A stretch of DNA of 44,360 nucleotides from Synechococcus sp. GTDB taxonomy: Bacteria > Cyanobacteriota > Cyanobacteriia > Thermostichales > PCC-7336. A program made the position numbers and the translations under genes. The notes beneath the pieces are model-generated. The model was not told where the DNA came from. It made no database searches and saw nothing but the letters and a program-made list of their open reading frames with translations. Of the stretch, positions 3,497 to 19,306 are shown in pieces (the first letter of the stretch is position 1; every line of letters starts with the position of its first letter). The stretch covers positions 1-44,360 of the forward strand of contig JBFRWD010000043.1 of assembly GCA_051439425.1 (NCBI GenBank), in the 5' to 3' direction.

Positions 3497-4954
3497 TTAT
3501 CTTTGCGTGAAAATCTTGGAAGTAAAAGTTCCGTGCAATCCATAGGGGACGTGGTGCTTGAGATGGAGCACAGCTTCTGGCTCTCCATTTATAGTTTGGG
3601 CATCCAAGATAACGATGTCGGTGCGATTGCGTTCCGCATCAAACACTAAAAGCAATAACCAGCCATCATCTTCAGCCGTGCCATCAGGACGCGGCACAAA
3701 CACAGGATCGCCGCCTAGATAACCGACAGGAGCAAAACTACGGATTTCCTGCTGCCCGGTCTCCATATCCACCTTCATCACACCTTGCAGTGGAGCGTTA
3801 GAGCCGGAGTCGTGGCTGCAACCGACATAGGTAAATTGCTGCTGTTTGCCCACATATGCCGGGTGTTGGGTCGGAAATTCGCAGGGGCGATCGACGATGA
3901 CACGACTGCTGACAAACCCCGTTTTCAGGTCAATGGTGTAGCGCACTAGGCGGGCAAAGGGAACAGACTCAAAGTCCACTTGGCGGAAATCGTCGTCGGC
4001 GTCAAGGGTGAGGTAGTCCTCGTAGCAAAGGGAATCGACGATGAGAAGATCGCCGTCTTCCCAAGCGTTGGCGTGATGGAAGATGAATCCGGGGTCGGTG
4101 GTAAAGGTGCGGGACTTCCCCTGGCGATCGAACACCACAATGCGGGTATTGGCTTTGGGGTCTAGCTCGATACAGGCGGCGGCGGGCTTGAGACCGAGAG
4201 CGACTGGGACGGGATTGAAGGAGACGGGATTTTGGAAAAAGATGCGGTAGTTGGGGGTGATCGCAAAATCGTGCAGAAAGCAGAAGCCAGGAACGGTGGC
4301 GGTAGTGTGCTCGGCTAGATTTCCGCTGGTATCGAGGCGATAGAAATGAATGGTGGACACTGGACCGGTGGTGACCCCGAAGGCAATCAGGTCGCCCGTA
4401 TCGGGATCGACATGAGGATGGGCAGTGAAGGCTTGCCCCTGCTTCAGCGCCCCTTCAAAGTATTCTTGCCCCAAGGTTTCCAGAGTGGCGGGATCGAGAC
4501 GGTAGGGGGAATCGGCTTCCCACAGGGCCAACAGCTTATCCCCTTGGTAGACCACATTGGTATTGGCGGGATTTTTGAACTTGAAGTCAAACCAGTTATT
4601 CCAAAAGCCACCCTCCCGCTGGGTGCCAAACACGCTGCGATAGAGAATTTTGCCTGCCTTCTGTTCGGCTAGGTATTCGGGGGTTTTGACAAAGCGATTG
4701 CGGAAATGAACGCGATCGCCACAAAACGAGATGGCACAGATCATGCCGTCCCCATCAAACGGGTGGCCGTAATCATTGCCGTTAACGTCTAGCGCCCCCG
4801 GCCCGTTACGGAATAACGTGCCCTCCAGTCCGGCAGGGAGCGTGCCCTCAATATCGTCAATCCAATAGTCGTGCTCGGTGTGGAGCGATCGGTACCCTCG
4901 GCTCCATGCTTCCGTGGTGTAAGCGGGCGAGGTAGACAGAGGGGAGGCAACCAT
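3497..4954 (-). CDS. Carotenoid oxygenase family protein (apocarotenoid cleavage dioxygenase)
   Basis: GTLFRNGPG, HPFDGDG, TAHPH, HDFAIT, FHHANAWE, EDDGWL and HHVPYGLHGTF; the four Fe-binding His are present. Confidence 0.95.
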   Translation of the reverse strand: MVASPLSTSPAYTTEAWSRGYRSLHTEHDYWIDDIEGTLPAGLEGTLFRNGPGALDVNGNDYGHPFDGDGMICAISFCGDRVHFRNRFVKTPEYLAEQKAGKILYRSVFGTQREGGFWNNWFDFKFKNPANTNVVYQGDKLLALWEADSPYRLDPATLETLGQEYFEGALKQGQAFTAHPHVDPDTGDLIAFGVTTGPVSTIHFYRLDTSGNLAEHTTATVPGFCFLHDFAITPNYRIFFQNPVSFNPVPVALGLKPAAACIELDPKANTRIVVFDRQGKSRTFTTDPGFIFHHANAWEDGDLLIVDSLCYEDYLTLDADDDFRQVDFESVPFARLVRYTIDLKTGFVSSRVIVDRPCEFPTQHPAYVGKQQQFTYVGCSHDSGSNAPLQGVMKVDMETGQQEIRSFAPVGYLGGDPVFVPRPDGTAEDDGWLLLLVFDAERNRTDIVILDAQTINGEPEAVLHLKHHVPYGLHGTFTSKIFTQR

Positions 4955-5031
4955 GCGATTCCAACAAGCGAGTCACTGCCCGTTATTGTCTCTAAAGTTA
5001 TGTTAAGTGTCTACGTTGAAACTACAACCCG

Positions 5032-6294
5032 CTAGGACTTGAGGGCAAAGATACGCTCGATCGCGTCGGACACCATGCGATCGGGGGTGGAGGCACCAGA
5101 GGTGATGCCCACGGTGATGGGGCCGGATGGTAACCAGTCATAGTCAACGAGGACACCACCGTCTAGTGGTTGGTGACGAATGCCGCCATCATCACGAATG
5201 CAAGCAGGACTATCGATGTGGAAGGATTTGTGTCCCTTCTCAATCGCAATTTCTTGCAGGTGGGTGGTGTTGGAGGAGTTAAACCCGCCGATGACTACCA
5301 TGACGTCTAGCTGCTCTTCAATCAGCGTGAACATGGCATCTTGACGCTCTTGGGTGGCGTTGCAGATGGTGTTGAAACTGATGAAATGCTCGTCCAACTT
5401 TTGGGGGCCATACTTGCGCAGCATGGTGGTTTCGAACAGCTTGGCGATCGCCTTGGTCTCCCCTTCCAGCATGGTGGTTTGGTTGGCGATGCCGACTCGC
5501 AGCAAGTCTTTGTCGGGGTCAAAGCCGGGGGACATAGCGTTAGAAAACTTGGCCAGAAACTCTTGCTTGAGTGCGTCGTGCTCGGCTTCGTTATCGTCTG
5601 CATGGAGGATGTAATTGGCCACGTAGCGGGCCTGCTCCATGTCCAGCACCACTAAATAGGTATCGGCAAACGAGCTGGTGGCAATGGTTTCTTCGTGAGT
5701 GTATTTCCCGTGGATGACGGAGGTAAAGTCTCGCTGGCGATGCTTGTCGAGCTGATTCCACACTCGCGAGACCCAGGGGCAGGTGGTATCGACAATTTCG
5801 TTGCCGTTCTCCTTAAAGAACTCCATCTCTTGCAGGCTGGCACCAAAGGCTGGCCACAGCACCACATCATTGGGGGCAATTTTGGTAAAGTCCTTCACCC
5901 CGTCCTGTTGCTGCACAAACTGAATGCCCATATTCCCCAACTGATCGTTAACTTTGGGGTTGTGAATGATTTCGTTCGTAATCCAGAGATTGCGTTCAGG
6001 AAAGCGGCGACGAGCTTCGTAGGCGTATTCGACAGCCCGCTCTACCCCCCAGCAAAAGCCGAAGGATTCCGCCAGCTTGATGGTGACATCCCCTTGGGTA
6101 TAGGTATTTTCATTGGCGCGAATCGTCTCGACTAATTCGCTTTTGTATTCGGTTTGCAGCTCGTCACGAATTTCGTCCTGCAGTTCTGGAAACCCTTTGG
6201 CGTAATAGGTATCGGAACGACGCAGGGATTGGCGTAGGGCTCTGGGGCGATCGGACGGAGACATAGAAGAGGGGGAGGAGGTGGATTGGGTCAT
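5032..6294 (-). CDS. ispH: 4-hydroxy-3-methylbut-2-enyl diphosphate reductase
   Basis: FGFCWGVERA, IIHNP, VDTTCPWV, NQTT, TICNATQERQ, SSNT and GITSGASTP; cyanobacterial/plant-type N-terminal extension. Confidence 0.97.
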   Translation of the reverse strand: MTQSTSSPSSMSPSDRPRALRQSLRRSDTYYAKGFPELQDEIRDELQTEYKSELVETIRANENTYTQGDVTIKLAESFGFCWGVERAVEYAYEARRRFPERNLWITNEIIHNPKVNDQLGNMGIQFVQQQDGVKDFTKIAPNDVVLWPAFGASLQEMEFFKENGNEIVDTTCPWVSRVWNQLDKHRQRDFTSVIHGKYTHEETIATSSFADTYLVVLDMEQARYVANYILHADDNEAEHDALKQEFLAKFSNAMSPGFDPDKDLLRVGIANQTTMLEGETKAIAKLFETTMLRKYGPQKLDEHFISFNTICNATQERQDAMFTLIEEQLDVMVVIGGFNSSNTTHLQEIAIEKGHKSFHIDSPACIRDDGGIRHQPLDGGVLVDYDWLPSGPITVGITSGASTPDRMVSDAIERIFALKS

Positions 6295-6589
6295 TGAGAG
6301 GAATTAGCCAACGCTAGTCTCAGCTTACGCTATGATTCTGCTCCCTCTGGGTGCTCTATATATCAATCCCGGTTATGTCAGTCTTGGCCATCTCAACCAT
6401 GACTGCGAAGTCCCAACCTGGGATGCCTACAGCGATCGGCAATCCACTATGGAGAGGTTCCTAGGTGCTTTTCCATGCCAATAAAGGACTCTAGCTGTCT
6501 CAACACTCCAGACCTTAGAGCGGATTGCTACACCACGAACATTCCAAATTTTTGACCTGTCAGAGGTTTGAACTATTGGAGTTGTTGCC

Positions 6590-7468
6590 TCAGTGTTTGA
6601 TGGCGGCGAGCAGACCGAAGCGAACTAGGCCGCTGGCATATCCTCGGGACATTAAGGGCAATGCCAGAGCCGCTCGCACCGTACCCCAGCCGCTCCCCAA
6701 TAGTTTGGGTAACACCGATAAATCTTTGGCTGAGTCAATGACGATATCCCAGAAGGGGGCGACTCGTTCCGACCAGTCATCGACCCGAATGTCTTTCAGT
6801 GAAAGGTTGCGGGCGATCGCCTCGTAATCCTGCAGGCTAATCACGTAGGGCAAGCAATAGACGTCATATATCTTCTGGAGGTGTTGCCGATCGCGCTGGG
6901 AGAGTTCTCCTTCGCGGTGACACCAGGTGGCCATCAACAGCGTTCCCCCCGGTTTCAGCACCCGACAGCATTCCGTTAAAAATTGCCGTTTGTCGGGCAT
7001 GTGCTCCCCGCTCTCCAGACTCCACACCAAATCGAAGCTGTTGCTGTCAAACGGCATGTTGAGGGCGTCGGCGACTTGGAAGCTGGCGCGATCGCCTAAC
7101 CCAAATTCAGAGGCTCGCTGGTTGGCCCGCTCGGCTTGGACGGGGCTGAGGGTAATGCCGGTGGCGGTGGCGTTGTAACGCTCGGCCAGATAGAGGCTGC
7201 TACCTCCAATACCGCAGCCAACATCCAGTATGGTCTTGGGGGCAGCAAGGGGGTCAGTTTCAGAAACTTGGCCCCAGTCTAAGAGGCGATCGATCAGGTC
7301 GATTTGAGCTTGGCGGCGGTTGGGTCGGGGGCCATCGACGGGGTAGTAGCCGTGATGCATGTGCTCTCCCCAGACGTCTTCCCACAGGCCGGAGGAGGCA
7401 TCGTAAAAGCGACGAATGCGATCGTTAAGTTGGGTGTCAGCGTTGGCGATCGCGTTGGGGTTATCCAT
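6590..7468 (-). CDS. Gamma-tocopherol methyltransferase-like class I SAM methyltransferase
   Basis: FYDASSGLWEDVWGEHMHHGYY, LDVGCGIGGSS, WSLESGEHMPDK and ATWCHR match the VTE4/Slr0089 family. Confidence 0.9.
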   Translation of the reverse strand: MDNPNAIANADTQLNDRIRRFYDASSGLWEDVWGEHMHHGYYPVDGPRPNRRQAQIDLIDRLLDWGQVSETDPLAAPKTILDVGCGIGGSSLYLAERYNATATGITLSPVQAERANQRASEFGLGDRASFQVADALNMPFDSNSFDLVWSLESGEHMPDKRQFLTECCRVLKPGGTLLMATWCHREGELSQRDRQHLQKIYDVYCLPYVISLQDYEAIARNLSLKDIRVDDWSERVAPFWDIVIDSAKDLSVLPKLLGSGWGTVRAALALPLMSRGYASGLVRFGLLAAIKH

Positions 7469-7597
7469 GGTGATCGATCGGTAGACTCGTACTCTGTTAA
7501 AGCCTAGAAGAAGACCGAACGCTCGCCTTCAGGCTTAAAGCCTGGCAACCACTGCATTCATGACTCCTTTTATCGCAATCCTGTCAGACAAAAAACT

Positions 7598-7646
7598 GGC
7601 TTGCTGCAATGCACAAACTGCTCGATGGCTCCTTTCTCAGCAAGCC
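7598..7646. repeat. Intergenic inverted-repeat element, copy 1
   Basis: GGCTTGCTG (7598-7606) ... CAGCAAGCC (7638-7646). Confidence 0.6.
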
Positions 7647-7654
7647 GGACAGAT

Positions 7655-9469
7655 TTATGTGGTCTGAGTGTGCAGGTTAAATGCCTGGTGAATGGTTTGC
7701 AACGCTTCTAGGCCGCTGTCTGCTCGTACGACGCAACTGACTTTGATTTCGGAGGTGGAAATCATTTCGACGTTAATGTCATTGGCCGCCAGAGCTTGGA
7801 AGAGTTGAGCGGCAGTGCCGGGATGAGCCTCCATCGATGCCCCCACGATGCTGACTTTGGCGACGTCCGTGTCCACTTCTACGCCGCCACAGTCGAGTTC
7901 GGAGGAGATTTGCTCTAAGAGTCCTTTTGCGGTGCGGGCTTGTTCTTGTTTGGTGGTAAAGGCGATGTGGTTGGTGGGAATGCCACTGGCGTTGGTTTGG
8001 TTGCGCTGGCTTTGGACGATGGTATCGACCACAATGCCTGCGTCGGCTAGGCGTCTGAAGATCTTGGCGGCGTGACCGGGGCGATCGGGAACATCCAAAA
8101 TGGCGAGGCGGGCTTGGTCGAAGTCGAGGGCAACACCGCTGACGGGAGAGGTGGTTGAGGAGCGATCGACGGGGGCCGGGTCGGCGACGGCATGAGGGAC
8201 GACTTGGAAGTATTGGCTCAGTTGTAGGGCTGCATCTCCAGCGCGAGCCGAATCAATTGCACAGCTGACCTTAATCTCCGACATGGAAATCAGCTGTAAA
8301 TTAATGTCGGCTGCAGCCAAGACTTCGAACATTTCGGCGGCGATGCCGGGGCGACCGATCATGCCAGCTCCGGCGATGCTGACTTTCGCGATGTTGTTGT
8401 CTACTAACACTTCACGGCAGCCCAGATCTTTGGCCACTTGTTTAACGATTTCAGCGGCTTCAATGACGGAGCCGTGCTCTAGGGTAAATGAAATGTCATT
8501 GGTAACTTCCTCATCTTTATCAAGATTGGGGTGGACGGATTGCAGAATAAGGTCGACGTTGATGCCCGCAGCAGCGATCGCCTGGAATAGTTTGGCAGCC
8601 ACACCGGGGCGATCGGGCACTTGTAATAGGACGATTTTGGCTTGGTTACGATCGGCGGTTACTGCGGTTACGGCCTGAGAAGTCTCCAGACCGGAGAGGG
8701 TGGGGCGGCGGCTGGGTTGGGGGGAGAGGACAGCGGTGCCGGGGTCTTCAGTCCAACTGGAGCGGACTGCTAGTTTGAGGCCGTAGTTGCGAGCCAGTTC
8801 GACGGCACGGGGGTGGAGGACGTTGGCACCCAGGCTGGCGAGCTCCAGCATTTCGTCGCTGGTGATGTGGGGTAACAGTTGGGCTTCGGGGACTTTGCGG
8901 GGGTCGGTGGTGAGGACGCCGGGAACATCCGTATATATCTCGCAGACTTCGGCATTGAGGGCGACTGCCAGGGCGACGGCGGTGGTGTCGGAACCGCCGC
9001 GACCGAGGGTGGTGATTTCTAGGTCGATGGGGCTGGAGATGCCTTGGAATCCGGCGACGATGACGACTTTTCCGGCATCGAGGTGGCGGCGAATGCGATC
9101 GGGACTGATTTCGTAGATGCGGGCGCGGGAATGTTCCCGTTCGGTCAGGATTCCGGCTTGGGCTCCGGTGAGGGAGGTGGCGGGGCAACCGATTTGCTGC
9201 AGGGCCATAGAGAGTAGGGAGATGCTGACTTGCTCGCCGGTGGAGAGCAACATGTCCATTTCGCGACGGTATTCTACGCTGTCGTCGGGGTCGGGGACGA
9301 TGTCGTTGGCGAGGGAGACGAGGGTGTCAGTTTGTTTGCCCATGGCGGATACAACCGCCACTACTTGATGGCCCTGGGCGACGGTGCGGGAGATGCGATC
9401 GGCGACGGCTTGAATGCGTTCGACGGTGCCGACGGAGGTACCTCCATATTTATGAACGATTAGGGCCAT
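7655..9469 (-). CDS. lysC: Aspartate kinase, cyanobacterial type with four ACT domains
   Basis: KYGGTSVG, VVSAMG, TTLGRGGSDTTA, YTDVPGV and VLHPRAVE, followed by repeated VPDRPG / AKVSI / SEIKVSC ACT modules. Confidence 0.97.
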   Translation of the reverse strand: MALIVHKYGGTSVGTVERIQAVADRISRTVAQGHQVVAVVSAMGKQTDTLVSLANDIVPDPDDSVEYRREMDMLLSTGEQVSISLLSMALQQIGCPATSLTGAQAGILTEREHSRARIYEISPDRIRRHLDAGKVVIVAGFQGISSPIDLEITTLGRGGSDTTAVALAVALNAEVCEIYTDVPGVLTTDPRKVPEAQLLPHITSDEMLELASLGANVLHPRAVELARNYGLKLAVRSSWTEDPGTAVLSPQPSRRPTLSGLETSQAVTAVTADRNQAKIVLLQVPDRPGVAAKLFQAIAAAGINVDLILQSVHPNLDKDEEVTNDISFTLEHGSVIEAAEIVKQVAKDLGCREVLVDNNIAKVSIAGAGMIGRPGIAAEMFEVLAAADINLQLISMSEIKVSCAIDSARAGDAALQLSQYFQVVPHAVADPAPVDRSSTTSPVSGVALDFDQARLAILDVPDRPGHAAKIFRRLADAGIVVDTIVQSQRNQTNASGIPTNHIAFTTKQEQARTAKGLLEQISSELDCGGVEVDTDVAKVSIVGASMEAHPGTAAQLFQALAANDINVEMISTSEIKVSCVVRADSGLEALQTIHQAFNLHTQTT

Positions 9470-9617
9470 GTACTTGTGGTGAACGGTGCATCCGCGATTG
9501 TATTACGTGACCTATCGCGGTGGCACGGCTGGATATGGGATTGTGGTGCTTCCTTGGTTTGTCTGAGGTATGACAGGTTTGCTGGTATAGGCGCGGTGGG
9601 CGTCAGGATGTGGAGCG

Positions 9618-9809
9618 ATGGCGGAAGGTGGTCAAGAAGGAGCGGTGACTGAGGAATGGTATGTGGTGCAGCGGCCTGAGGGGCATTGCGAGATTGTCGA
9701 TGCGGTTCCAGAAGAGGATGCGACCAATTGGGGGCCATTTGCGTCGCAGGGGGATGCCATTGCTCGCCGAATTGGGTTGATTCGGTCTGGGAAGTGTCAG
9801 CCAGTGTGA
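9618..9809 (+). CDS. Conserved small cyanobacterial hypothetical protein (63 aa)
   Basis: WYVVQRPEGHCEI...WGPFASQGDAIARRIGLIRSGKCQP resembles a widespread small cyanobacterial family (recalled, not searched). GGAG lies upstream of the ATG. Confidence 0.75.
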   Translation: MAEGGQEGAVTEEWYVVQRPEGHCEIVDAVPEEDATNWGPFASQGDAIARRIGLIRSGKCQPV

Positions 9810-9823
9810 TGTGAGGCATAAGA

Positions 9824-9925
9824 TTAGCGGTTGTCGAATAGGATTTTGGCCAGGATGACAAAAACCAGGATGATGGCTAGTTCGGTGGTTCCGACTTGTG
9901 GAGCGCTAAGGACTTTGGCACTCAT
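9824..9925 (-). CDS. Putative 33-aa single-pass membrane peptide, divergent from the NACHT gene
   Basis: Manual translation gives MSAKVLSAPQVGTTELAIILVFVILAKILFDNR*, with one hydrophobic helix. It is below the ORF track cutoff. Confidence 0.5.
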   Translation of the reverse strand: MSAKVLSAPQVGTTELAIILVFVILAKILFDNR

Positions 9926-10088
9926 CTGTTTCGCTTCCAAATTGCATCCCAAGTAGCGTCTGCCAGTTTTCCAACAGCCCAAGAGATTAGGGCTGACAAG
10001 ATGAACAGAAGAAGGGCTTTCATTGCGAACTCCATCACGACAGCCTAACTATGCCGGAAGATAAATGTGGGCAGATCGGCAGGAGATT

Positions 10089-10174: not shown

Positions 10175-12530
10175 ATGTCGGGGCAAACGCTACAGCTCTC
10201 AGAGCGAGGAAAGAAACTTGCAAGAGAAGCTCTTAAAAAGCTTGGTATGTCCCAGAAGAAACTAGCAGTGCGCCTGGAACTATCTGAGTGGTCAGTATCA
10301 AATTTTATGAGAGTTAAGCCAGTTAAATCGGAAAATTTTTTGAAACTCTGTGGTCATCTGAAGCTAGATATTGAGCAAGTAGTTGAAAAAATTGAAGAGC
10401 CAACTGACATTTCAGCACTGATCAAAGAAGTTCGAGCCAAAGTCTACGACGACATCAATTACCGCTGCGGCGCGATGCGTGTGTTAGATATGACGCAGCC
10501 TGTTGGAATGGGACAGATTTACACCCAAGTCAATATTTTGGAGAAGATCACTGGAGCAAGACGATTGGGCATCAGCGAGCTGATGGAGGCTTGCGAAGTG
10601 GAGAATTTCGAAAGAGTTGGCCTCGGAGATATTAAACAGAAAAAAGTACCGGGGTTAAAAGCGGTACAAGTTCACAATCGTCTGATGGTGCTAGGAAAAC
10701 CCGGAGCCGGAAAAACAACATTTCTAAAGTACTTGGCAACTCAATGCAATCAGGGTAGTGAGTTTCAAGAATTAGTCCCTATTTTTGTAACGCTCAAAGA
10801 GTTTGCTGAGGCAGAAGAATCACCCTCGTTACTGGAATACTTAAATGGCTATTTTCATAAAACTAAAGTACCTAATCCTAAGGAAACGCTGGAGAAGCTA
10901 CTCGAAGGAGATTCAACACTTATTCTTCTGGACGGCCTTGATGAAGTTAGGCAAGAGGATACAGGACGAATCTATAAGCAGATAGAAGACTTGGCCGCTC
11001 AGGCAGGAAATAGCTTTGTAGTTGTGACCTGTCGGATTGCTGCGAAAGAATATACTTTCGAGCACTTTACCGAAGTCGAGGTTGCTGACTTCGACAAAAG
11101 GCAGATAGTAGAGTTCTCTTCCAATTGGTATGGAAAGAGGAATCTTCCTAAAGCTCAGAAATTCACAGAAAAAATCAACAACAGTGTCCGAGTAAAAGAA
11201 TTGGCAACCAATCCACTTCTACTAACTATGTTGTGTTTACTCTTTGAAGAAAATACTGATTTTCCTGTCAATCGTTACGAACTATATCAAGAAGGAGTTA
11301 AGGTTTTACTCAAAAAGTGGGATGCCAATCGGAATATTGAACGGCAAGACGTATATAACAAGCTTTCTCCAAGACGAAAGGAAGATCTACTTAGCCACGT
11401 AGCTCTATCTGCTTTCGAAGAAGCAGAATATTTTTTTCAAGCAGAAGCGACTGGAAGAGCGAATCTGTGAATATGTTAGACATTTGCCTGAAGCCGAGTC
11501 AGATCCAGAAGCATTAGCTTTAGACGGAGAGGCTGTCCTTAAGGCAATTGAGGCTCATCATGGTTTACTCGTTGAACGTGCAAGAGGAATTTATTCTTTT
11601 TCTCACTTAACATTACAGGAATATTTTGCAGCCCGACAAATTATCGAAAATAGACCCACCTCTTTTGAAGCTTTAGTCGCCAGAGAAACTGATAAATCTT
11701 GGCGGGAAATTGTTCTGCTTACAGTTAATGGCCTATCTAGAGCAGATGATTTTATTCTATTGTTTAAGCAACATATAGATTCTCTTGTCTACGAAGAACT
11801 TGAAATTCAAAATATCCTAGTTTGGTTGCATAAAAAAACTGTACCTATAGACAGCTCGTATAAACCCGCAGCAGTCAGAGCCTACTACTTTTCCCGTGCC
11901 CTCAACCTTGCCTGTGCTCGTGCTCATGATCTTGAACTTGCCCGCACCTTTGAGCTTGCCCGTGATCTTGAGCTTTCGCATGACCTTGCCCGTGACTTTG
12001 CTCGAGAGCTTGAGCTTGAGCTGGACATTATTGACATTGACCCTAATCTTGCCCTTGACCTTGCCCTTGACCTTGCCCTTGACCGTGCTCGTGCTCTTGA
12101 TCGTGCTCGTACCTATGCCCTTGATCGTGCCTATACCTTTGACCGTGCCCGTGCCCTTGAACGTGCCCTTGACCGTGCCATTGATCGTGCTCAAAAAATA
12201 GATAAGCCAATGGCAGAACTTCTTGAAAATCTAAACAGTCAACTCCCTAAGAATTCAGATGAATGCGTCGAATGCTTTAAACAGGGCAACCGGAAATTCA
12301 CTAACAAGTTAACTTCCCTGATGCAAGAGCTTAGAAATTTTGGCCACGATTGGCAATTCAACACTAAACAAATAGAGATTTTGAAACATTATCTTGAATC
12401 AAATAAGTTCTTAGTCGAATGCCTCAACACCGACTGTTACGTCAATCTAGAAGTCCGCCAAGAAGTCGAAGGCACCCTTCTCCTCCCCATGTCCGAAATC
12501 GAAGCCTACAAAAAAGCTCATCCCAGATAG
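10175..12530 (+). pseudogene. HTH-NACHT (STAND NTPase) with helical C-terminal domain, interrupted by a 1-nt frameshift in a T7 tract at 11431-11437
   Basis: N-terminal XRE-like HTH (MSQKKLAVRLELSEWSVSNF), Walker A GKPGAGKTT, Walker B LILLDGLDE, TCR and NPLLL, then FSHLTLQEYFAA in the second ORF. Removing one T joins the ORFs as EYFFKQKRLEERICEYVRHLPE. Confidence 0.9.
11890..12190 (+). repeat. Low-complexity coding repeats (D/E-L-A-R/L units) in the NACHT C-terminal region
   Basis: CTTGCCCTTGAC x3 near 12048-12083 plus many degenerate GACCGTGCC/CTTGAT units, encoding LALDLALDLALDRARALDRAR. Confidence 0.85.
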
Positions 12531-12535
12531 AACTC

Positions 12536-12627: not shown

Positions 12628-13731
12628 GTCTTTCGCCTCAGGAAAATAACTCACGATCGCTCGAATCCTAGCCACAATAGGCGGATGAGTCGCAAACAAC
12701 TTGCTGTCATCATCCAAACTCGAACAGAAAAACATGTGACACACCGCTTCCGCCTGAGGCGCAAGCATCTGCAATCCTCCTTCCAGCTTTGAAATCTTCC
12801 ACAACACAGAACACAAACTGCGAGGATTGCGAGTTAAGCGCACCGCAGCCACATCAGCCAAAAACTCGCTCTGTCGGGCAACCGCCGCTTGAATCAACCG
12901 ACTGAAAAGCAGCCCAACATACCCCGACACCTGGGCAAACACGTTCAATATCAATGCGAGGAAAGTAGTCAAAAAGAACATCGAGCCCTCATTGGAATCA
13001 ATCTCTGATTTATTTAATCGCCTAGATACAAACTTCCGAATACCGATATAAACCACAAGCAGGCTGTTCAAGAAAATGTAGAGCCAGGAATTAAAACCAG
13101 TATCTCCATTTAAAATATGGCCGAATTCGTGGGCAACCACCGCCTGAAGTTCGCTGCGGTTGAGCTTTTCAAGACATCCCTGAGTTACGCATATCGCTGA
13201 TGTTTGAATGGTAAAGCCGCTAGCAAACGCATTGATTCCAGATTCTTGCTCCAACACAAATATCCTTGGAGACGGGACCCCAGCCGCGATCGCCATTTCA
13301 TCCACAACATTACTCACCACAAGAAAGCCTGGATTCGTATCGCCATCCAGAATCTCGGTAGCACCCAAACTATAAGCAACCGCTGCTCCTCCCCGTCGCT
13401 TTAGTGCTCTAAATTTTGCAATAGCCGTAAAACAGACCATCGCCACAATACAAACCGTTAAACCAAGCAGAACATTCGGAAACCAAAAGTCCAACCGACT
13501 AACAAATGCCTGCCCGTACTCCTCAATCTCTAGGGTATCTAGCACGTCGAGACTGGCCTTGTATTGGAGGAAGAAATACTTGATGGGCGCAGCAACGATC
13601 AGAAATACGCAGTAGAAACTTAGAATCAGCGTGGACACGGTCGAGATGTAGGCGATCGCAAACAACAGAGACAACCGCTTCGTTATCCGCTTCGATTTTG
13701 CTCGGCGTTTATCTACATCAACGATGCTCAT
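12616..13731 (-). CDS. M48 (HtpX-like) membrane zinc metallopeptidase, short paralogue
   Basis: NVVDEMAIAAG, INAFA, AHEFGH (HExxH), EFLAD and ATHPP, with several transmembrane segments. Confidence 0.9.
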   Translation of the reverse strand: MSIVDVDKRRAKSKRITKRLSLLFAIAYISTVSTLILSFYCVFLIVAAPIKYFFLQYKASLDVLDTLEIEEYGQAFVSRLDFWFPNVLLGLTVCIVAMVCFTAIAKFRALKRRGGAAVAYSLGATEILDGDTNPGFLVVSNVVDEMAIAAGVPSPRIFVLEQESGINAFASGFTIQTSAICVTQGCLEKLNRSELQAVVAHEFGHILNGDTGFNSWLYIFLNSLLVVYIGIRKFVSRRLNKSEIDSNEGSMFFLTTFLALILNVFAQVSGYVGLLFSRLIQAAVARQSEFLADVAAVRLTRNPRSLCSVLWKISKLEGGLQMLAPQAEAVCHMFFCSSLDDDSKLFATHPPIVARIRAIVSYFPEAKDMGE

Positions 13732-13810
13732 ACATTTTTGTCAGCAACTACTCTGGCCATCTCTGCCTTGAAGTATTCGTTGGTAAGTCTCCCCAACATC
13801 CGAGCCTTGA

Positions 13811-15766
13811 TTACCGAATATTCAAAAACGGCGGTAGCGGACAATCCAACGACAGTACAAACGCCCGCAACAACTCCGATTCTTTTACCGTCACTCGCCC
13901 ATCCAACAACACCGTCCGCGCACAAGCCTCCACTACCGCCTGCTTCCCCTTCGGAGCCAACCGCCGCAAATTCTCCAATCCCGCATCCAAACTCTGCGTC
14001 GTAAACAGCGGCAAGCGATCGCCATTCTTCACCCGATCCGACACCGTCACATCCGCAGACCGCACCAACCGATCCACACCCGCCTGAAACGCAAAAACGC
14101 GATCGCCCTCCGAATCGTGCCCCGCCTTCGCCAGCGCCGCCACCAACGTCAAACAATCTCCAAGCACATCCGCAACGCTCTCGTACTTCACCGCCGGATT
14201 CAGCTCGCCCCCCAACGCCACCGTCAATCGACTGCGCAACACCGCCATCAAGGCAAACTCCGACAGCGACACCTCTCCATCCGCCATCACCAACTGATGC
14301 ACGTTATTGGCAAACATCTGACAGCCATCTGTCTCCATCCGCCGCAGTGCAGGCACGGCCAAATCCAACACCGGCAAGCACAATCGTAGATCTAGATTCT
14401 TCAGCGAGGCACCCACCTCAACTACTGCCGTCATCACCTCCTCTGGTTCCGTTTCCCTCAGCTTGCTCAACTGGTGATCGCGCATCTCCCCATCGTCATC
14501 CAACAACAACGCATACACGCACCCCTTCGCTCCCGGCAGAGTGTGTAGCTGCGCTCTCAACCTCTGCGGTAACTTCTGTAATAGAGCGTGAACCTGAGCG
14601 ATCCCCTTCTCATCTGCAATCCCAATCCGCTCTGCAATATCTTCAACCGCCATCGGAGCAGTACTTTCAGACACAACAGTCGCTGCCCGCTGCCCGCCCA
14701 CAGGAGCACTACCCACCAAACCACTGGCCAATCCAGCTGCTCCAGCAGGAGCCATACCAACAGTCGCTACCTGCGGTGCCGGATCGTGAAATTGAACGGC
14801 TCCACCCAATCTCCGAATGCGCTCAGCCAGCGGAGGATGGGACGCAAACGCTCTGCCTCCAAAGGACGACACCGCCGACCCAAAAAACAAATGACTGGCC
14901 GCTTCTGCCTGAGGTGCCAACACCGACGACCCCTGCGAATATCCAGCGATCTTCTGCAACGCACTGGCAATCCCGCTGGGGTTACGCGTAAACTGCACCG
15001 CCGATGCATCTGCCAAAAACTCCCGCTGACGGGATACGGCTGCCTTAATGGCTCGACTACACAACCAACCAATTCCCCCCACCGCAAACATCGCAAATCC
15101 CAATACCAAGGCCGGATTCCCTTTAGAATTTCGCGAACGATATCGAGGAGTGCTCATGCGCATCAGCAATCGTCCAGCCAAGTGGATCAGCAAAATCCCT
15201 TGCAAAACCCCAATCAACTTCAGATTGAGATTCATATCCCCATTCAGAATGTGGCTGAATTCATGAGCAATCACCCCCTGCAGCTCATCCCGATCGAGCT
15301 GCTCCAAACATCCCTGAGTCACCGCCACAGCAGCATCATTCGTGGTGAAACCCGCCGCAAATGCATTAATACCGTGCTCGTTAGCCAACACAAACATCCT
15401 GGGCACCGGCACCCCGGAGGCGATCGCCATCTCCTCCACCACATTCACAAATACCAACTGCTCGTCAGTCGCCATTTCCGCATACACTTCGCTCCCCCCC
15501 AAGCTCAAGGCCACCTGTGCCCCTCCCCCTTTCTTCAGTGCCAAATACTTCCACAAACTGCCGCTTCCCACCAGCAGTAACGTCCAAACAGTCACCCCAA
15601 AAAACGCCTCTGGGTACCAGAGAGTGGCGGTACTCGACCCCTGAGAAATCGTCACGGCAACCGCTAAATACAATCCAGTGATCGTGAAGGCGATCGCGGC
15701 AACAAACAGTCCCAACAACTGAGTCGTGTTGTGGCGGGCTTTGTCTTGGGATTCGAAAAAATTCAT
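13811..15766 (-). CDS. M48 (HtpX-like) zinc metallopeptidase with long C-terminal TerB-like helical region
   Basis: MNFFESQ start, AHEFSH, REFLADA and ASHPP. The C-terminus has ADGEVSLSE and LDGRVTVKE motifs and ends CPLPP. Confidence 0.93.
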   Translation of the reverse strand: MNFFESQDKARHNTTQLLGLFVAAIAFTITGLYLAVAVTISQGSSTATLWYPEAFFGVTVWTLLLVGSGSLWKYLALKKGGGAQVALSLGGSEVYAEMATDEQLVFVNVVEEMAIASGVPVPRMFVLANEHGINAFAAGFTTNDAAVAVTQGCLEQLDRDELQGVIAHEFSHILNGDMNLNLKLIGVLQGILLIHLAGRLLMRMSTPRYRSRNSKGNPALVLGFAMFAVGGIGWLCSRAIKAAVSRQREFLADASAVQFTRNPSGIASALQKIAGYSQGSSVLAPQAEAASHLFFGSAVSSFGGRAFASHPPLAERIRRLGGAVQFHDPAPQVATVGMAPAGAAGLASGLVGSAPVGGQRAATVVSESTAPMAVEDIAERIGIADEKGIAQVHALLQKLPQRLRAQLHTLPGAKGCVYALLLDDDGEMRDHQLSKLRETEPEEVMTAVVEVGASLKNLDLRLCLPVLDLAVPALRRMETDGCQMFANNVHQLVMADGEVSLSEFALMAVLRSRLTVALGGELNPAVKYESVADVLGDCLTLVAALAKAGHDSEGDRVFAFQAGVDRLVRSADVTVSDRVKNGDRLPLFTTQSLDAGLENLRRLAPKGKQAVVEACARTVLLDGRVTVKESELLRAFVLSLDCPLPPFLNIR

Positions 15767-15878
15767 GGCGGGAATGTCAACAGATGAGCTGTTCTGTTCG
15801 AAGCAAAATAATTGCGAGGGGAATCAGCGATCGAACTAATGCGAAGTCAATTTAGGAGCACTGGGTACTTGCTCTCCT

Positions 15879-15989
15879 TCAGGCTTGCTGCAGCAAACTC
15901 ACAGTCGGATAACACTGCCTGACAAACCACTAACTTCAGGTTTGCTGCAGCACCTCGTAATTAGATGAAACTCTTCATAGCAAGCCTGA
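15879..15989. repeat. Intergenic inverted-repeat element, copy 2
   Basis: TCAGGCTTGCT (15879-15889) ... AGCAAGCCTGA (15979-15989), with an internal second copy TTCAGGTTTGCTGCAGCA. Confidence 0.65.
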
Positions 15990-15996
15990 CAAATCA

Positions 15997-16590
15997 CTAA
16001 AAAGAAACCTGAGGAACGGCTTTCACTTCAGGAGCAGATTCTTCAAGAAGTTGTGCTTTAGCAAAGTTGAACATCCCAGACACAATATTGCTAGGAAAGA
16101 CTTCACGCTGAGTGTTGTAGACCGTCACAGAATCGTTGAACGATTGGCGGGCAAATGCGATCCGGTTCTCAGTCGATCGCAGTTCTTCCGACAGTTGTTC
16201 CATCGACGCATCAGCCTTCAAATCGGGATAAGACTCTGCTAGAGCAAATAATCGGCCCAGCGACCCTGTCAGCGCCGCTTCCGCTGCCCCCAATTGCTGA
16301 ATCGCAGCGGCATCGCTCGGGGCTTGAGCCGCTCTGGCACCTGCGTTCACCGCCATATTGCGGGCATTGATTACGGCTTCCAGCGTTTCCCGCTCGTGTT
16401 TCATATATCCCTTCACGGTCTCCATGAGGTTGGGAATGAGATCGTGACGGCGACGGAGTTGCACGTCAATTTGGGAATAGGCATTTTCGTAACGGTTGCG
16501 GGAGGTTACTAAGTTGTTGTAAGACCCAATCGCGATAACAATCGGGGTGACAATTAATGCCAAAAGAACGATTAGCACAATCCATATCAT
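15997..16590 (-). CDS. lemA: LemA family protein
   Basis: N-terminal TM helix, [38 protein letters not shown] and FPSN. The start is taken at MIWIV (16590). Confidence 0.95.
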
Positions 16591-16816
16591 GGGCGAACTC
16601 GCAGTTGAGAACGATAAAAGTTCTAGCTGTCCAGAACCACCCGTTAACTTACCCATTCTGAGAGGTGTGTATTTTGGGTACGCGCGTTGTCTAAAAAAGG
16701 AGTGGGGATTCTCGGGGGACCTCAGATCGGGATGCTAGTTTGGGGGCGCACTTGACGATCGTCTACGAATTCTTGACTCGTCATTTGTCCTTGGTCATTC
16801 GTCATTGGTAGCTAGC

Positions 16817-16951: not shown

Positions 16952-16992
16952 CACTGCCGTTGTTGTTGTTCTGATTCGTCAGTTTGTCGTCC

Positions 16993-18126
16993 ATGTCCGC
17001 TCTCTCCCGTCGTTTTGGCAAAACCGAGCAACAGCTATCGGCGTTCTCGCTAGGAACGATGCGGTTGGTTAATTGTCCGGAATCTGTGGCCCGCAACACG
17101 GTTGTTTCGGCGGTGGAAAGAGGAATCGATCACATCGAAACGGCTCAAGCATACGGCATTAGCGAAGTTCGCCTGGGCAACATCCTGTCTCAAGACCTTT
17201 CCGGCTATCGAGATCGCCTCACCATCACCACCAAACTCGTTCCCAGCCTGCCGCCTAACAAGTTGAGAGAGGCGCTGGAGCGATCGCTAGATCGCCTGCA
17301 ACTGGATTACATCGACAACTTCGCCTTCCACGGCATCAACCTGCCCGAGCATTTAGAACTGGTATTAAACGGCGGTTTACAAACCGTACAAGAGGCCGTT
17401 GCGGAGGGATTAGTTAGGCACATTGGTTTTTCCACCCACGGAGCGCTTGAGTTAATCCAAACGGCAATTTCCACTCAAGCCTTCGATTTCGTCAACCTGC
17501 ACTACTACTATTTCAACCAGCGCAACCAGGCAGCCATTGCTCTGGCGAACCAGCAGGATATGGGAGTGTTCATTATTTCCCCTGCCGATAAAGGCGGAAT
17601 GCTCTACCAACCCCCTCAACTCCTGCAGGAACTGTGTCAGCCGTTCTCCCCCCTCGAATTTGGCTATCGCTGGCTACTCGAGAACCCCGCCATCCACACC
17701 CTCAGCCTCGGAGCAGCCCATCCCACCGATCTCGATGCTGCCTTTGCCGCGCTGGAACCCTCTGCCGACTGGCTGCAGCTCAAACAAGACATCGATCGCC
17801 GCATTCAAGACACCCTGGCCAAAGGGCTAGAGAGCGATCGCTGCTCCCAATGCTTTCAATGTCTCCCCTGTCCGGAAGCCATCAACATTCCTGAGGTGTT
17901 GCGCTTGCGCAACCTAGCTCAGGGGTTGGATATGACCGAGTTCGCCCAATATCGCTACAACATGTTTGAGAAGGCCGGACATTGGTTTCCCGGTCGCAAG
18001 GGCGATCGGTGCACGAAATGCGGAGATTGTTTACCCCGCTGTCCCGAACAGCTGAATATTCCCCACCTGCTTGCAGATTCGCACGAGCGATTAAACGTGC
18101 GCACCATTCGTCGTCTATGGGAGTAG
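16993..18126 (+). CDS. Aldo/keto reductase with C-terminal 4Fe-4S dicluster domain
   Basis: RRFGKT, FSLGTMR, IETAQAYG and HIGFSTHG; C-terminal CSQCFQCLPCP and CTKCGDCLPRCP. Confidence 0.93.
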   Translation: MSALSRRFGKTEQQLSAFSLGTMRLVNCPESVARNTVVSAVERGIDHIETAQAYGISEVRLGNILSQDLSGYRDRLTITTKLVPSLPPNKLREALERSLDRLQLDYIDNFAFHGINLPEHLELVLNGGLQTVQEAVAEGLVRHIGFSTHGALELIQTAISTQAFDFVNLHYYYFNQRNQAAIALANQQDMGVFIISPADKGGMLYQPPQLLQELCQPFSPLEFGYRWLLENPAIHTLSLGAAHPTDLDAAFAALEPSADWLQLKQDIDRRIQDTLAKGLESDRCSQCFQCLPCPEAINIPEVLRLRNLAQGLDMTEFAQYRYNMFEKAGHWFPGRKGDRCTKCGDCLPRCPEQLNIPHLLADSHERLNVRTIRRLWE

Positions 18127-18179
18127 GCTGCTTGCCGGAGTTTCCAAGAGGCAATATTGCTAGAAATTAGCCTGAAAAA

Positions 18180-19172
18180 TCACGCATAATAACCGCGATA
18201 CCACTCCACAAATTTACCGATTCCCTCTTTCAACGTAGTGGCGGGCCGGAAGCCGACATCTGCCATCAAATCATCCACATTGGCATAGGTTTCCAGAACA
18301 TCCCCCGGCTGTACGGGCATCATATTTTTCTCGGCAGTTTTCCCTAATGCCGCTTCGATTTCTTCGATAAATTCGCTCAGTTCAACCGACGTATTGTTAC
18401 CGATGTTGTAAACCTTGTAGCGGGCTTTTGAGGGTAACCCTCCCTCTTGGACTGGGGCTGGCTCGGGCCGTTTCTGCATTACCCGCACGATCCCTTCCAC
18501 AATGTCGTCAATGTAGGTGAAGTCCCGCCGCATTTTGCCGTAGTTGTAGACGTCAATCGGCTTGTCTTCTTCGATCGCTTTCACAAATTTGAAATAGGCC
18601 ATGTCCGGACGACCCATCGGACCGTACACGGTAAAGAAACGCAGCCCGGTAACGGGGATGCCGTAAAGGTGGCTGTAGCTGTGGGCCATCAGCTCGTTGG
18701 CTTTCTTACTGGCTGCATAGAGAGAAACAGGGCGATCGACCGAATCCGTTGTGGAAAAGGGGATTTTGCGATTGCCGCCGTAGACCGAACTGGAAGATGC
18801 GTAGACTAAGTGGCCCACCGACCCCTGACGGCATCCCTCCAAGATATTGGAGAAACCAACCAAGTTGCTATCAATGTAGGCCGCCGGGTTTTCAAGTGAA
18901 TAGCGAACGCCTGCCTGAGCTGCCAAATTCACAACAACGTCAAAAGGTTGGCCGGCAAACAGCGATTCCATCCCCTGCCGATCGCTCAGATCCTGCTTGA
19001 GAAATTCAAATTGAGCTTGCTGCGCCAGCAGATCTAAGCGGGCTTGCTTGAGAGACACATCGTAGTAATCATTGAGGTTATCGAGTCCTAAGACCGTGTG
19101 GCCATCTGCCAACAAGCGCTGACTGAGGTGATATCCGATAAATCCTGCAGCACCGGTAACTAATACCTTCAA
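18180..19172 (-). CDS. NAD-dependent epimerase (UDP-glucuronate 4-epimerase type)
   Basis: TGAAGFIG, NLAAQAGVRYS, YASSSSVYG, YAASKK and RFFTVYGPMGRPDMA. Confidence 0.95.
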   Translation of the reverse strand: MKVLVTGAAGFIGYHLSQRLLADGHTVLGLDNLNDYYDVSLKQARLDLLAQQAQFEFLKQDLSDRQGMESLFAGQPFDVVVNLAAQAGVRYSLENPAAYIDSNLVGFSNILEGCRQGSVGHLVYASSSSVYGGNRKIPFSTTDSVDRPVSLYAASKKANELMAHSYSHLYGIPVTGLRFFTVYGPMGRPDMAYFKFVKAIEEDKPIDVYNYGKMRRDFTYIDDIVEGIVRVMQKRPEPAPVQEGGLPSKARYKVYNIGNNTSVELSEFIEEIEAALGKTAEKNMMPVQPGDVLETYANVDDLMADVGFRPATTLKEGIGKFVEWYRGYYA

Positions 19173-19306
19173 ACCACCCTGTCCCTACACTCAATTGCTG
19201 CCTATATTTTGCCAGGGGACCTGCCAGCTAGAGCCTGTCAGGCTGACTTTTCGGGATGCGCTCACTCGCACAATCCCTTGCAATCAGCCTTATCTTGAGA
19301 CGCGAT

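Follow-up and report, generated by a model that had tools for sequence, protein, structure and literature searches.

Mirror-image G-versus-C bias at silent sites beside a variable immune-type insertion in a Synechococcus genome

Two domains of opposite silent-site composition meet at a variable, immune-type insertion in Synechococcus sp. (assembly GCA_051439425.1), where the strand running 5' to 3' into the insertion has more G and less C in every class of silent site and in the spacers, whichever way the genes point. This mirror-image bias of G versus C is real, and the locus is the strongest of about 15 such "convergent G-skew" domains in the genome under study (G000; 4.8 Mb). The window is the whole stretch that was analyzed, 44,360 nt of contig JBFRWD010000043.1, and G001 (a sister species), G002 (a complete genome) and G003, from the same genus, were used for comparison. 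The features of the window are the following, with coding GC3 skew for single genes.

3497..4954, minus strand: carotenoid cleavage oxygenase, RPE65 family (PF03055, E 1.8e-145); skew -0.35
3600..10000: left skew domain, rich in G and poor in C at silent sites of the plus strand; contains four housekeeping genes on the minus strand and one small ORF on the plus strand
5032..6294, minus strand: ispH/LytB (PF02401, E 2.4e-73); skew -0.29
6590..7468, minus strand: SAM-dependent methyltransferase (PF08241 and related families); skew -0.33
7655..9469, minus strand: lysC aspartokinase with four ACT domains (PF00696, PF22468); skew -0.65
9618..9809, plus strand: small conserved ORF, 63 aa; skew +0.71
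10175..11470, plus strand: N-terminal ORF of a NACHT NTPase, HTH and NACHT (PF05729, E 3.9e-16; PADLOC PDC-S60, E 1.8e-12)
11484..12530, plus strand: C-terminal ORF of the NACHT NTPase, NCH2 domain (PF22727, E 7.9e-25)
11500..16000: right skew domain, plus strand C-rich and G-poor at silent sites, weakening to 18 kb
11908..12207, plus strand: 12-nt periodic coding repeat inside the NACHT C-terminal ORF; 13 copies, 12 to 63 nt apart (in most cases 12 or 18)
12536..12627, no strand assigned: direct repeat copy A, 92 nt, 87% identical to copy B
12616..13731, minus strand: small M48 peptidase paralogue, 371 aa, GC 0.48 (PF01435, E 1.6e-27); skew +0.26
13811..13902, no strand assigned: direct repeat copy B, 92 nt, the final 92 nt of the large M48 coding sequence
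13811..15766, minus strand: large M48 peptidase, 651 aa (PF01435, E 1.1e-28); skew +0.60
15997..16656, minus strand: LemA family gene (PF04011, E 3.5e-55); skew about zero
16984..18126, plus strand: aldo/keto reductase with a 4Fe-4S domain (PF00248, PF13187); skew -0.22

In 1-kb windows the all-site GC skew of the plus strand is +0.20 to +0.29 over 8001-10500 and -0.22 to -0.32 over 12001-16000, with the change of sign at about 11-12 kb; the flip lies near 11.4 kb. Sliding third-position skew ranges from +0.12 to +0.78 in the left domain, with its peak in lysC, and from -0.14 to -0.76 in the right domain. Gene by gene, plus-strand GC3 skew is +0.35 in the carotenoid oxygenase, +0.29 in ispH, +0.33 in the methyltransferase, +0.64 in lysC and +0.71 in the small ORF, then +0.15 and -0.42 in the N and C parts of the NACHT gene, -0.26 and -0.60 in the small and large M48 genes, -0.10 in LemA and -0.22 in the aldo/keto reductase, and about zero in genes further right. 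The bias was said in an earlier note on this DNA to fade with distance, and it does, reaching 4-7 kb per side and about zero within 5-8 kb. The same note had singled out lysC and the large M48 gene, both on the minus strand, for their opposite third-position bias, and rightly so: their coding GC3 skews (-0.65 vs. +0.60) lie outside the opposite 0.5% and 99.5% quantiles (-0.54 and +0.52) of 2154 ORFs of at least 250 aa across the genome (SD 0.185). At four-fold sites lysC has 65% C and 10% G, against 53% G and 13% C in the large M48 gene; at two-fold sites the figures are 67% NNC and 75% NNA for lysC, and 74% NNT and 83% NNG for the large M48 gene. Plus-strand genes had been said to agree, which holds for the small ORF and for the NACHT tail, where the 12-nt repeat contributes part of the bias as a gene-intrinsic share, but hardly for the aldo/keto reductase, whose -0.22 is within about 1.2 SD and forms a weak tail of the right domain.

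To score flips we used D, the mean plus-strand GC3 skew of the k genes to the left minus that of the k genes to the right. D is 0.81 at k=3 (rank 1 of 2264 windows) and 0.70 at k=4 (rank 1 of 2002), values reached in none of 300 permutations; a non-significant skew had been named beforehand as refuting the proposal.

The bias acts on DNA, by about two-fold for G and two-fold against C. At four-fold sites the same shift appears in all eight codon families and in every neighbor context, and on the G-rich strand G rises from 0.27 to 0.52 and C falls from 0.30 to 0.14, with smaller drops in T (0.22 to 0.16) and A (0.21 to 0.17). The plus strand had been described as G/T-rich on the left and C/A-rich on the right; G versus C indeed flips, but raw T versus A does not, with A and T falling about equally, and the absence of T enrichment at these sites is unlike what plain cytosine deamination predicts. 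Skewed genes are G-rich-coding in 51 cases and C-rich-coding in 48, each set the mirror image of the other. Plus-strand skew is correlated between oppositely oriented neighbors (r=0.17, n=1107), and intergenic skew tracks that of the adjacent genes whatever their relative orientation (all four classes; r=0.28, n=1515, p=1.5e-29), so that independence of gene orientation, as originally claimed, extends to intergenic DNA. Expression-linked or translational codon bias, or transcription-coupled mutation, might be considered because highly expressed genes also prefer C-ending codons at two-fold pyrimidine sites. However, in 11 reference genes (EF-Tu, eight phycobiliprotein genes and the two most biased of four psbA/psbD-family genes) four-fold T is 0.19-0.52, at least 0.29 in 10 of them, and NNG is 0.38-0.78, whereas lysC has T at 0.13 and NNG at 0.25. 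Of the 38 most skewed genes that were scanned, about one third had no family match and the others matched families of ordinary enzymes, transporters and repeat proteins. With the sign independent of coding strand, the same skew in spacers and different skews in orthologues, this explanation, which the earlier note had raised against itself, is rejected and retains almost no credibility. Transcription- or R-loop-associated GC skew is likewise local, kilobase-scale and G-rich on a strand of defined direction; here, by contrast, the G-rich strand is coding in about half of the skewed genes and template in the other half.

The polarity of the flip is fixed across about 15 loci of the genome. At k=4, D exceeds 0.5 in 14 windows and falls below -0.5 in none (permutation expectation 0.3 per side); counted as distinct loci, 15 lie above 0.5 against four below -0.5, all weak, and beyond 0.55 the count is 13 vs. 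0. A process focused at this locus had been suggested; the locus is the strongest flip but not a unique one. A 400-kb stretch of G002 has three windows with D>0.5, at two loci about 15 kb apart, and none with D<-0.5, and a 440-kb sample of G003 has no convergent flip and one divergent flip (-0.53). A chromosome replication terminus, or a fixed point of fork convergence with ordinary replication skew, would show the same change from plus to minus, and it would suit the strongest flip of the genome, one that adjoins the large M48 gene in each of G000, G003, and G001 but differs among them in its other flank, as well as the slight downward drift of cumulative all-site skew right of 16 kb. Replication-associated skew also favors G over C by strand regardless of gene direction. 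Yet plus-strand skew is correlated at only 0.04-0.07 at lags of 4-15 genes and averages between -0.12 and +0.05 on contigs longer than 65 kb, so that the local skew of +/-0.6 is about ten times stronger than replication skew. The skew here is confined to a few kilobases per side at each of many places (two of them close together in the complete G002), has no T-over-A partner at four-fold sites and sits on variable low-GC genes. Because 15 loci share one polarity against four weak opposite ones and long-range skew is tiny, a terminus is highly improbable, and a single terminus of invariant gene content, the other alternative named at the outset, conflicts further with the variable center.

Gene content between lysC and the large M48 gene differs among relatives, as had been anticipated, in the NACHT and small M48 genes. 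The central insertion comprises about 4 kb of low-GC DNA, which holds the frameshifted NACHT gene and, between the 92-nt direct repeats, the small M48 cassette. The NACHT gene is regarded as split in G000 because its two ORFs start in different reading frames; its N-terminal ORF has a GC of 0.42, and the skew changes sign at the 3' end of this ORF. Neither G002 nor G003 has a close NACHT orthologue, and in G001 it lies on another contig (C89) as a single 770-aa ORF with 71% identity. A contig of run X3 joins 12531 to 13812, leaving out the small M48 segment between the repeats. The small M48 protein is about 46% identical to the large M48 of G003 and 44% to that of G001. LemA adjoins the large M48 gene in G000, G003, and G001. 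The 63-aa ORF, which matched no Pfam family, adjoins lysC in G003 and G001 (tblastn, 81 and 71% identity, respectively).

Comparison of orthologues shows that the skew goes with position and not with gene identity. For lysC it is -0.64 in G003, -0.04 in G001 and -0.31 in G002, and ranges from -0.16 to +0.31 in 21 others from the same family, order and class, none with such skew; the large M48 orthologue has +0.55 in G003 and +0.36 in G001. As the skews of lysC, mdh, pepP, and ggt are lineage-specific, they are not intrinsic to these genes. In G001, where D is also 0.81, three genes beside the large M48 orthologue are skewed by -0.56, -0.48, and +0.39, and their G000 orthologues (81-83% amino acid identity) are located elsewhere with skews of +0.17, +0.09, and -0.12. 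The bias arose within the genus, and its maintenance has been active through more than one substitution per silent site, as ggt retains skews of +0.70 and +0.63 over a four-fold silent divergence (d4, F81 correction) of 1.2, and pepP -0.66 and -0.59 over 0.78. We consider it very doubtful, marginally more so than a terminus, that the flip is a relic of flanks imported or inverted from a strongly skewed source, or of inherited gene-specific biases adjoining by chance. The GC content of the genome is a mosaic, and one adjacent pair from opposite 0.5% tails is not very improbable (at k=2 the flip ranks 9 of 2567, and 25% of permutations reach the same value). The k=3 and k=4 flips, however, were never matched by permutation, flips are of one polarity only, lysC identity declines in step with taxonomy (genus, 97, 86, and 77%; family, 68-69%; order, 61-65%), and none of the 21 lysC orthologues measured beyond G001-G003 is so skewed. 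By an exponential-decay argument, a decaying relic could not have kept skews of 0.6-0.7 over d4 of 0.8-1.2.

No excess of silent-site divergence was found in skewed genes among 157 G000-G003 pairs: d4 is 0.53 for lysC, 0.53 for the large M48 gene, 0.48 for mdh and 0.45 for ggt against a median of 0.75, and the seven pairs with |skew| of at least 0.35 have a median of 0.53, a comparison that rests on few genes. By our calculation, added mutational input should raise the rate about 1.2-fold. The local mutational or recombinational process of the earlier note is sustained as regards strand specificity and a variable center, but simple local hypermutation is disfavored. A strand-specific fixation bias unrelated to breaks, in which selection or biased gene conversion among many chromosome copies favors G on one strand, for example to serve a polar DNA signal or a structural property of foreign-gene flanks, is an unlikely but serious possibility. 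It would fit the silent divergence of skewed genes at about 0.65 of the genome median, the skew kept at d4>1, and our calculation that one parameter (G favored and C disfavored about two-fold, A and T untouched) reproduces both four- and two-fold composition. The divergence evidence, though, consists of few genes and an F81 correction, and no over-represented polar word accounts for the skew: the leading k-mers belong to the palindromic GCGATCGC family, apart from a few words carried by repeats. The search for a reader of such a signal gave no Rho, RecC, true RecB or alpha-type AddB (for the last three, none in the 96%-complete assembly of G000), and per-site selection on hundreds of silent sites would be implausibly strong, unless conversion provides the drive.

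Our tentative preference, which we rate as somewhat less probable than not, is that the locus is a putative long-lived site of recurrent DNA breakage or fork arrest, whose fragility would also let cassettes come and go. During end processing, the strand ending 3' at the site would always remain as the single-stranded survivor and sole template, and damage to it, or biased re-synthesis or correction against it, would affect opposite strands on the two sides. Since this surviving strand switches between sides, a single flip polarity would be explained, and the observed polarity is the one expected of strands with their 3' ends at a break or an arrested fork. The bias may enter through biased repair or gene conversion more probably than through mutation, because silent divergence shows no excess; for the same reason the mechanism can only be inferred, and single-stranded flanks, cassette replacement as a cause and fork convergence are conjectural. 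The roughly 15 places may be persistent points at which DNA breaks or its copying stalls. In yeast, 5' to 3' resection on both sides of a double-strand break yields single-switch, strand-coordinated clusters of kilobase scale, in which the top strand is mutated at C left of the break and at G right of it; clusters of reverse order are rare there (PMC6786661). Such a pattern depletes C on the left, where top-strand cytosines are lost, and G on the right, where bottom-strand cytosines are lost, giving the polarity seen at this locus. However, the yeast clusters are single events in one cell under a mutagen (PMC6786661). Here the composition is fixed and at equilibrium, has lasted through more than one substitution at each silent site, shows no excess divergence, and gains G as much as it loses C. 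Points against breakage or arrest are also the lack of T enrichment at four-fold sites, the failure to find RecC, true RecB or alpha-type AddB in G000, the many low-GC islands that have no flip, the G001 flip with no island at its center, and the G003 sample with its single divergent flip.

We found no description in the literature of convergent silent-site skew around variable loci. Animal mitochondrial strand asymmetry is graded by single-stranded time, and the heavy strand gains G and T. The silent-site skew there is comparable (0.6-0.8), with single-strandedness as the proposed cause, but at four-fold sites of this genome nothing but the balance of G and C moves. Hotspots of horizontal gene transfer carry variable cargo flanked by core genes. 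Our locus resembles them in its low-GC variable cargo, including defense-type genes, amid housekeeping genes, and in the differences between close relatives; to our knowledge no compositional strand polarity has been reported in hotspot flanks, and none was found in the literature.

The earlier note had asked whether flips coincide with variable loci. Low-GC DNA is over-represented at flip centers: the lowest 1-kb GC in their vicinity has a median of 0.43 vs. 0.485 at random boundaries (p=0.002). Flank D exceeds 0.4 in 6 of 86 low-GC islands and is below -0.4 in none, against 27 and 33, respectively, of 1372 control genes; 80 of the 86 islands, however, have no flip, and the G001 flip has no low-GC island at its center. 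Several of the low-GC genes enriched at flip centers are STAND-type or TIR (NACHT, NACHT-WD40, TPR, Roc-COR-TIR, and PIN genes occur there). The STAND-type association is partly post hoc, as it was first noticed at flip centers; of five further loci, two agree with it well (C60, C17), two weakly (C97, C156), and one does not (C57).

Between lysC and the large M48 peptidase gene, on either side of the NACHT locus, the G-versus-C skew of the + strand changes sign, bearing out the strand-composition flip that the earlier note had seen by eye. The window takes up the entire contig C43 of a 4.8-Mb genome in 182 unordered contigs (G000), which was assembled from a marine-sediment metagenome at a completeness of 96%, and 99% of sampled words are present in metagenome run X1. 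The genes around the locus are as follows.

3497-4954, minus strand: carotenoid oxygenase
5032-6294, minus strand: ispH
6590-7468, minus strand: methyltransferase
7655-9469, minus strand: lysC
9618-9809, plus strand: conserved ORF of 63 aa
10175-11470 and 11484-12530, plus strand: NACHT NTPase, split in two frames, GC 0.42-0.44
12616-13731, minus strand: small M48 peptidase
13811-15766, minus strand: large M48 peptidase
15997-16656, minus strand: LemA
16984-18126, plus strand: aldo/keto reductase
after the aldo/keto reductase: epimerase, the rightmost gene listed

Over all sites, the GC skew of the + strand is positive from 8 to 10.5 kb (+0.20 to +0.29) and negative from 12 to 16 kb (-0.22 to -0.32). 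At third codon positions (GC3 skew, written on the + strand) the left genes give, in order, +0.35, +0.29, +0.33, +0.64, and +0.71, the NACHT gene passes from +0.15 to -0.42, and the values to its right are -0.26, -0.60, -0.10, and -0.22, with skew near 0 farther on; part of the bias in the NACHT tail comes from a 12-nt periodic coding repeat. Around the locus as a whole, skew returns to about 0 within 5-8 kb. Read on their coding strand, lysC (-0.65) and the large M48 gene (+0.60) lie beyond the 0.5% and 99.5% quantiles, on opposite sides, of the 2154 ORFs of at least 250 aa that served as reference (SD of GC3 skew 0.185), and their four-fold and two-fold sites are concordant. We measured flips by D, the mean + strand GC3 skew of k genes on the left minus that of k genes on the right, so that positive values are convergent. 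At 3 or 4 genes per side the flip near NACHT is the largest in the genome and was reached by 0 of 300 permutations; at 2 genes per side it ranks only ninth. The flip had been described as one from G/T to C/A, of which the G-versus-C part stands and the raw T/A part does not, T/A skew showing no flip; at four-fold sites of skewed genes G rises and C falls, while A and T drop about equally.

A chimeric contig was ruled out as the source of this pattern, since a single X1 contig covers 9478-14302 and depth is even across the pieces. The 63-aa ORF at 9618-9809, which has no Pfam family, also adjoins lysC in the same-genus relatives G003 (81% identity) and G001 (71%), and is probably a real small gene. 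The left skew domain starts directly to the right of a group of overlapping ORFs at 2465-3650, possibly an IS remnant, in which ORF 2465-2806 weakly matches an InsA-like zinc ribbon, at E 1.6e-4 and short of the cut-off. In the spacer between ispH and the methyltransferase (~6430-6530), depth is raised 4-7-fold in runs X1-X3 and ~1.2-fold in X5, and many X1-X3 contigs end or diverge at 6432, 6493, 6528, and 6530, which suggests a short repeated element widespread in the sampled metagenomes; no tRNA gene was found at this spacer.

The centre of the locus (10-13.7 kb) has an atypical GC of 0.41-0.48, the flanks having 0.55-0.60, and it is variable. The NACHT gene carries the NACHT domain PF05729 (59.8 bits, cut-off 26.7) and the C-terminal helical domain PF22727 (87.3 bits, cut-off 27), yet it is broken into two ORFs whose frames differ, the first closing with a stop at 11468-11470 and the second starting at 11484, and there is no single intact frame. 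Its orthologue in G001 (71% identity, on a separate 4.2-kb contig) is an intact single ORF of 770 aa, and by this comparison the window copy looks frameshifted. Relatives carry different genes between these flanks, the mark of an insertion hotspot: G003 has both flanks, on contigs ending at the locus, and no close NACHT match (the best is 33% identical), G001 has different genes beside its large M48, and G002, a further same-genus relative, has no large M48 gene. The small M48 gene is bracketed by a direct repeat of 92 nt (87% identity; 12536-12627 and 13811-13902), copy B of which (13811-13902) is the 3' end of the large M48 coding sequence, and a contig of run X3 (depth 3.65) joins 12531 to 13812 exactly and so is without that gene. 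In run X2, which samples a related strain of roughly 95% identity, both flanks are covered, 10163-12366 is uncovered and no contig bridges it. A second X3 joint links 7613 to 15978 through 25 letters; it was set aside as being like other short replaced spacers. No tRNA gene was found in 1-22000 of the window and no integrase among the ORFs scanned, the weak InsA-like ORF 2465-2806 being the sole trace of a mobile element.

The skew is not a property of the genes themselves. That of lysC is about -0.65 in G000 and -0.64 in G003 (97% aa identity) but -0.04 in G001 (86%) and -0.31 in G002 (77%), and it ranges from -0.16 to +0.31 in 21 further relatives (computed for 25 of 30 loci). Likewise, mdh is at +0.76 in G000 and +0.72 in G003 against +0.16 in G001, -0.13 in G002, and -0.02 in the further relative G004; ggt is at +0.70, +0.78, and +0.63 in G000, G003, and G001 against -0.07 in G002; and pepP is at -0.66 in G000 and -0.59 in G001 against -0.03 in G002. 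Across orthologues, skew correlates with that of G000 at r=0.84 for G003 (173 pairs) and r=0.49 for G001 (127 pairs). In G001, three other genes adjoin the large M48 orthologue and LemA, with skews of -0.56, -0.48, and +0.39 and a flip of D=0.81. The G000 orthologues of these three genes (81-83% aa identity, internal order kept) lie on contig C98 with skews of +0.17, +0.09, and -0.12. Therefore, the flip is anchored beside the large M48 gene in three species, and the differing DNA opposite acquires skew. The G001 flip runs from + to - at ~7.0 kb of the stretch L077 (G001:C8, 2995-11127), between two divergent genes; the large M48 orthologue has its 3' end 2.2 kb away, and the flip centre holds no low-GC insertion. 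The skew is actively maintained: ggt retains it across a four-fold-site divergence (d4) of 1.2 and pepP across 0.78, and on a simple decay argument a relic would have faded over such divergence. In G001 the mean absolute change in skew is 0.085 where both neighbours are conserved (n=26); the other two classes give 0.155 (n=46) and 0.128 (n=42), and the 12 largest changes all lie outside the conserved class. The association of synteny breaks with skew change is not significant there (Mann-Whitney p=0.20), and no difference was found in G003 (p=0.89).

Nor is the skew a matter of codon selection or expression. Translational codon bias was ruled out because the preferences differ from those of highly expressed genes, the coding strand is not followed and spacers are skewed as well. 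Four-fold sites are rich in T in EF-Tu, in eight phycobiliprotein genes and, among four psbA/psbD-family genes, in the two with the strongest bias; NNC in these genes is at 0.57-0.92 and NNG at 0.38-0.78. Unlike them, lysC has four-fold C of 0.65 and T of 0.13, with NNG at 0.25. The 51 genes with G-rich and the 48 with C-rich coding strands are mirror images in all codon families and neighbour contexts. Intergenic skew tracks the flanking genes, alike in the four orientation classes (r=0.28, n=1515), and + strand skew is common to neighbours of opposite orientation (r=0.17), decaying by the third gene. The 38 most skewed genes scanned are ordinary wherever a family was found (about one third had no match) and include pdxJ, nei, carA, pepP, RtcB, mdh, ggt, hypB, a SelD fusion, a MATE transporter and some repeat proteins. 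The codon usage of core genes such as lysC, mdh, ggt, and pepP is biased enough that expression or horizontal transfer deduced from codons could be wrong.

Genome-wide, 71 patches with absolute skew above 0.4 make up 167.5 kb, or 3.5% of the genome, and the flips are mainly of one polarity, a measure unaffected by reverse-complementing a contig. Distinct loci number 15 with D>0.5 against four with D between -0.51 and -0.54, and 13 against 0 beyond 0.55; counted as windows, D>0.5 and D<-0.5 occur 21 and 5 times at k=3 and 14 and 0 times at k=4, permutation giving equally few on each side. Among the relatives, 400 kb of the complete genome G002 hold two convergent loci ~15 kb apart and no divergent one, a 440-kb sample of G003 holds no convergent and one divergent flip, and 400 kb of the distant cyanobacterium G037 show no |D|>0.5 and a symmetric distribution. 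These counts bear on the replication terminus as an explanation. A terminus allows one shift per replicon, which fails with 15 convergent loci in G000 and two ~15 kb apart in G002, and it implies a constant sign along the replichore, which fails as the skew near the window locus is spent within 5-8 kb. Long-range skew is ~10 times weaker than local skew, with a lag correlation of 0.04-0.07 by 3-4 genes. The unordered contigs yield no cumulative skew curve, but the many loci of one polarity together with the weak long-range skew make a terminus unlikely.

Flip centres tend to be low in GC: near the 15 flips the minimum 1-kb GC has a median of 0.43, whereas random gene boundaries give 0.485 (p=0.002). 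Most low-GC islands, however, are without a flip: flank D exceeds 0.4 in 6 of 86 islands and lies below -0.4 in none (27 and 33 of 1372 controls), and as a class the islands have a mean flank D of just +0.04 to +0.06 (p=0.06-0.10), the asymmetry being confined to the tail. Genes at the centres include the window NACHT, a NACHT-WD40, a TPR gene with a stop, an LRR-Roc-COR-TIR and a PIN gene, with flank D of 0.61-0.74. This association of flips with immune-type NTPase families was noticed after the fact; among five further loci of these families, two fit well (C60 and C17), two weakly (C97 and C156) and one not at all (C57), and WD40-only genes have flanks without a flip. The TPR gene, of TPR_12 / NPHP3 type (G000:C80:22654-24723), is broken by a TAA stop.

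The polarity of the flips is that of strands ending 3' at the flip centre. These are the very strands that stay single-stranded, or serve as the only template, when a break is resected 5'->3' or when forks are arrested to its left and right. Breaks in yeast lose C on the left and G on the right of the top strand and almost never in the reverse order (PMC6786661). The flips here follow the 5'C-3'G order of those break-resection clusters, with 15 loci of this polarity and 4 of the other, or 13 and 0 beyond 0.55. Break resection also leads one to expect raised mutation density, whereas skewed genes here have d4 of 0.45-0.53 against a median of 0.75 (G000-G003 orthologues; ~9 strongly skewed genes). 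With d4 not raised and T not enriched at four-fold sites, a simple mutagenic process is disfavoured. The preferred explanation, though somewhat short of an even chance, is that a long-lived fragile and insertion site undergoes repeated breakage or fork arrest, followed by strand-asymmetric repair. A fixation bias independent of breaks would be rather unlikely; in its favour, our calculation with a single parameter, favouring G and disfavouring C about two-fold, fits both four-fold and two-fold compositions and predicts a modestly lower substitution rate. The fuller proposal is doubtful: that a site-anchored, strictly polar process, biased repair or gene conversion after recurrent breaks or fork arrest, would write a mirror G/C signature several kb into the flanks at the same points where NACHT, TPR-STAND and Roc-COR-TIR genes are inserted and exchanged. 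Resection of an incoming linear fragment, starting at the fragment's ends, would be expected to give the opposite polarity. Polar words were rejected: among 6-8-mers on the G-rich strands of the 71 patches, only the palindromic GCGATCGC family and a few words carried by repeats are over-represented. Queries for Rho, RecC, true RecB and alpha-type AddB, which did not extend to Firmicute-type AddAB, gave no match in the 96%-complete genome.

Strand compositional asymmetry is itself a known kind of phenomenon, of which local convergent skew is an instance, and in bacteria it is usually taken to reflect transcription or the direction of replication. The asymmetry here is far stronger, local, strictly polar, tied to position, long kept and centred on variable defence-type loci; among the titles and abstract openings that full-text searches listed, none describes local convergent skew around variable loci. 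If the fuller proposal is true, strong strand asymmetry would have a new source besides replication and transcription, and skew flips would give a single-genome read-out of fragile or recombination sites. Should recurrent breakage or arrest with biased repair be at work, fragile sites and insertion hotspots could be located from sequence alone, caution would be due wherever inversions or the direction of replication are deduced from the GC skew of genes in such genomes, and polyploid cyanobacteria would offer a natural system in which to study strand-biased repair.

A contig end is found within 5 kb of 42% of the extreme genes and of 35% of all genes, a difference that is not clear. One patch is one-sided: at G000:C122:4834-7060 three adjacent genes of mixed orientation all have + strand GC3 skew of about -0.7, and the patch borders low-GC genes (GUN4-like, Usp). 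In G037, despite the lack of strong flips, neighbours of opposite orientation share + strand GC3 skew (loci L139-L158; lag-1 r=0.19), and weak local strand domains may be common in cyanobacteria.
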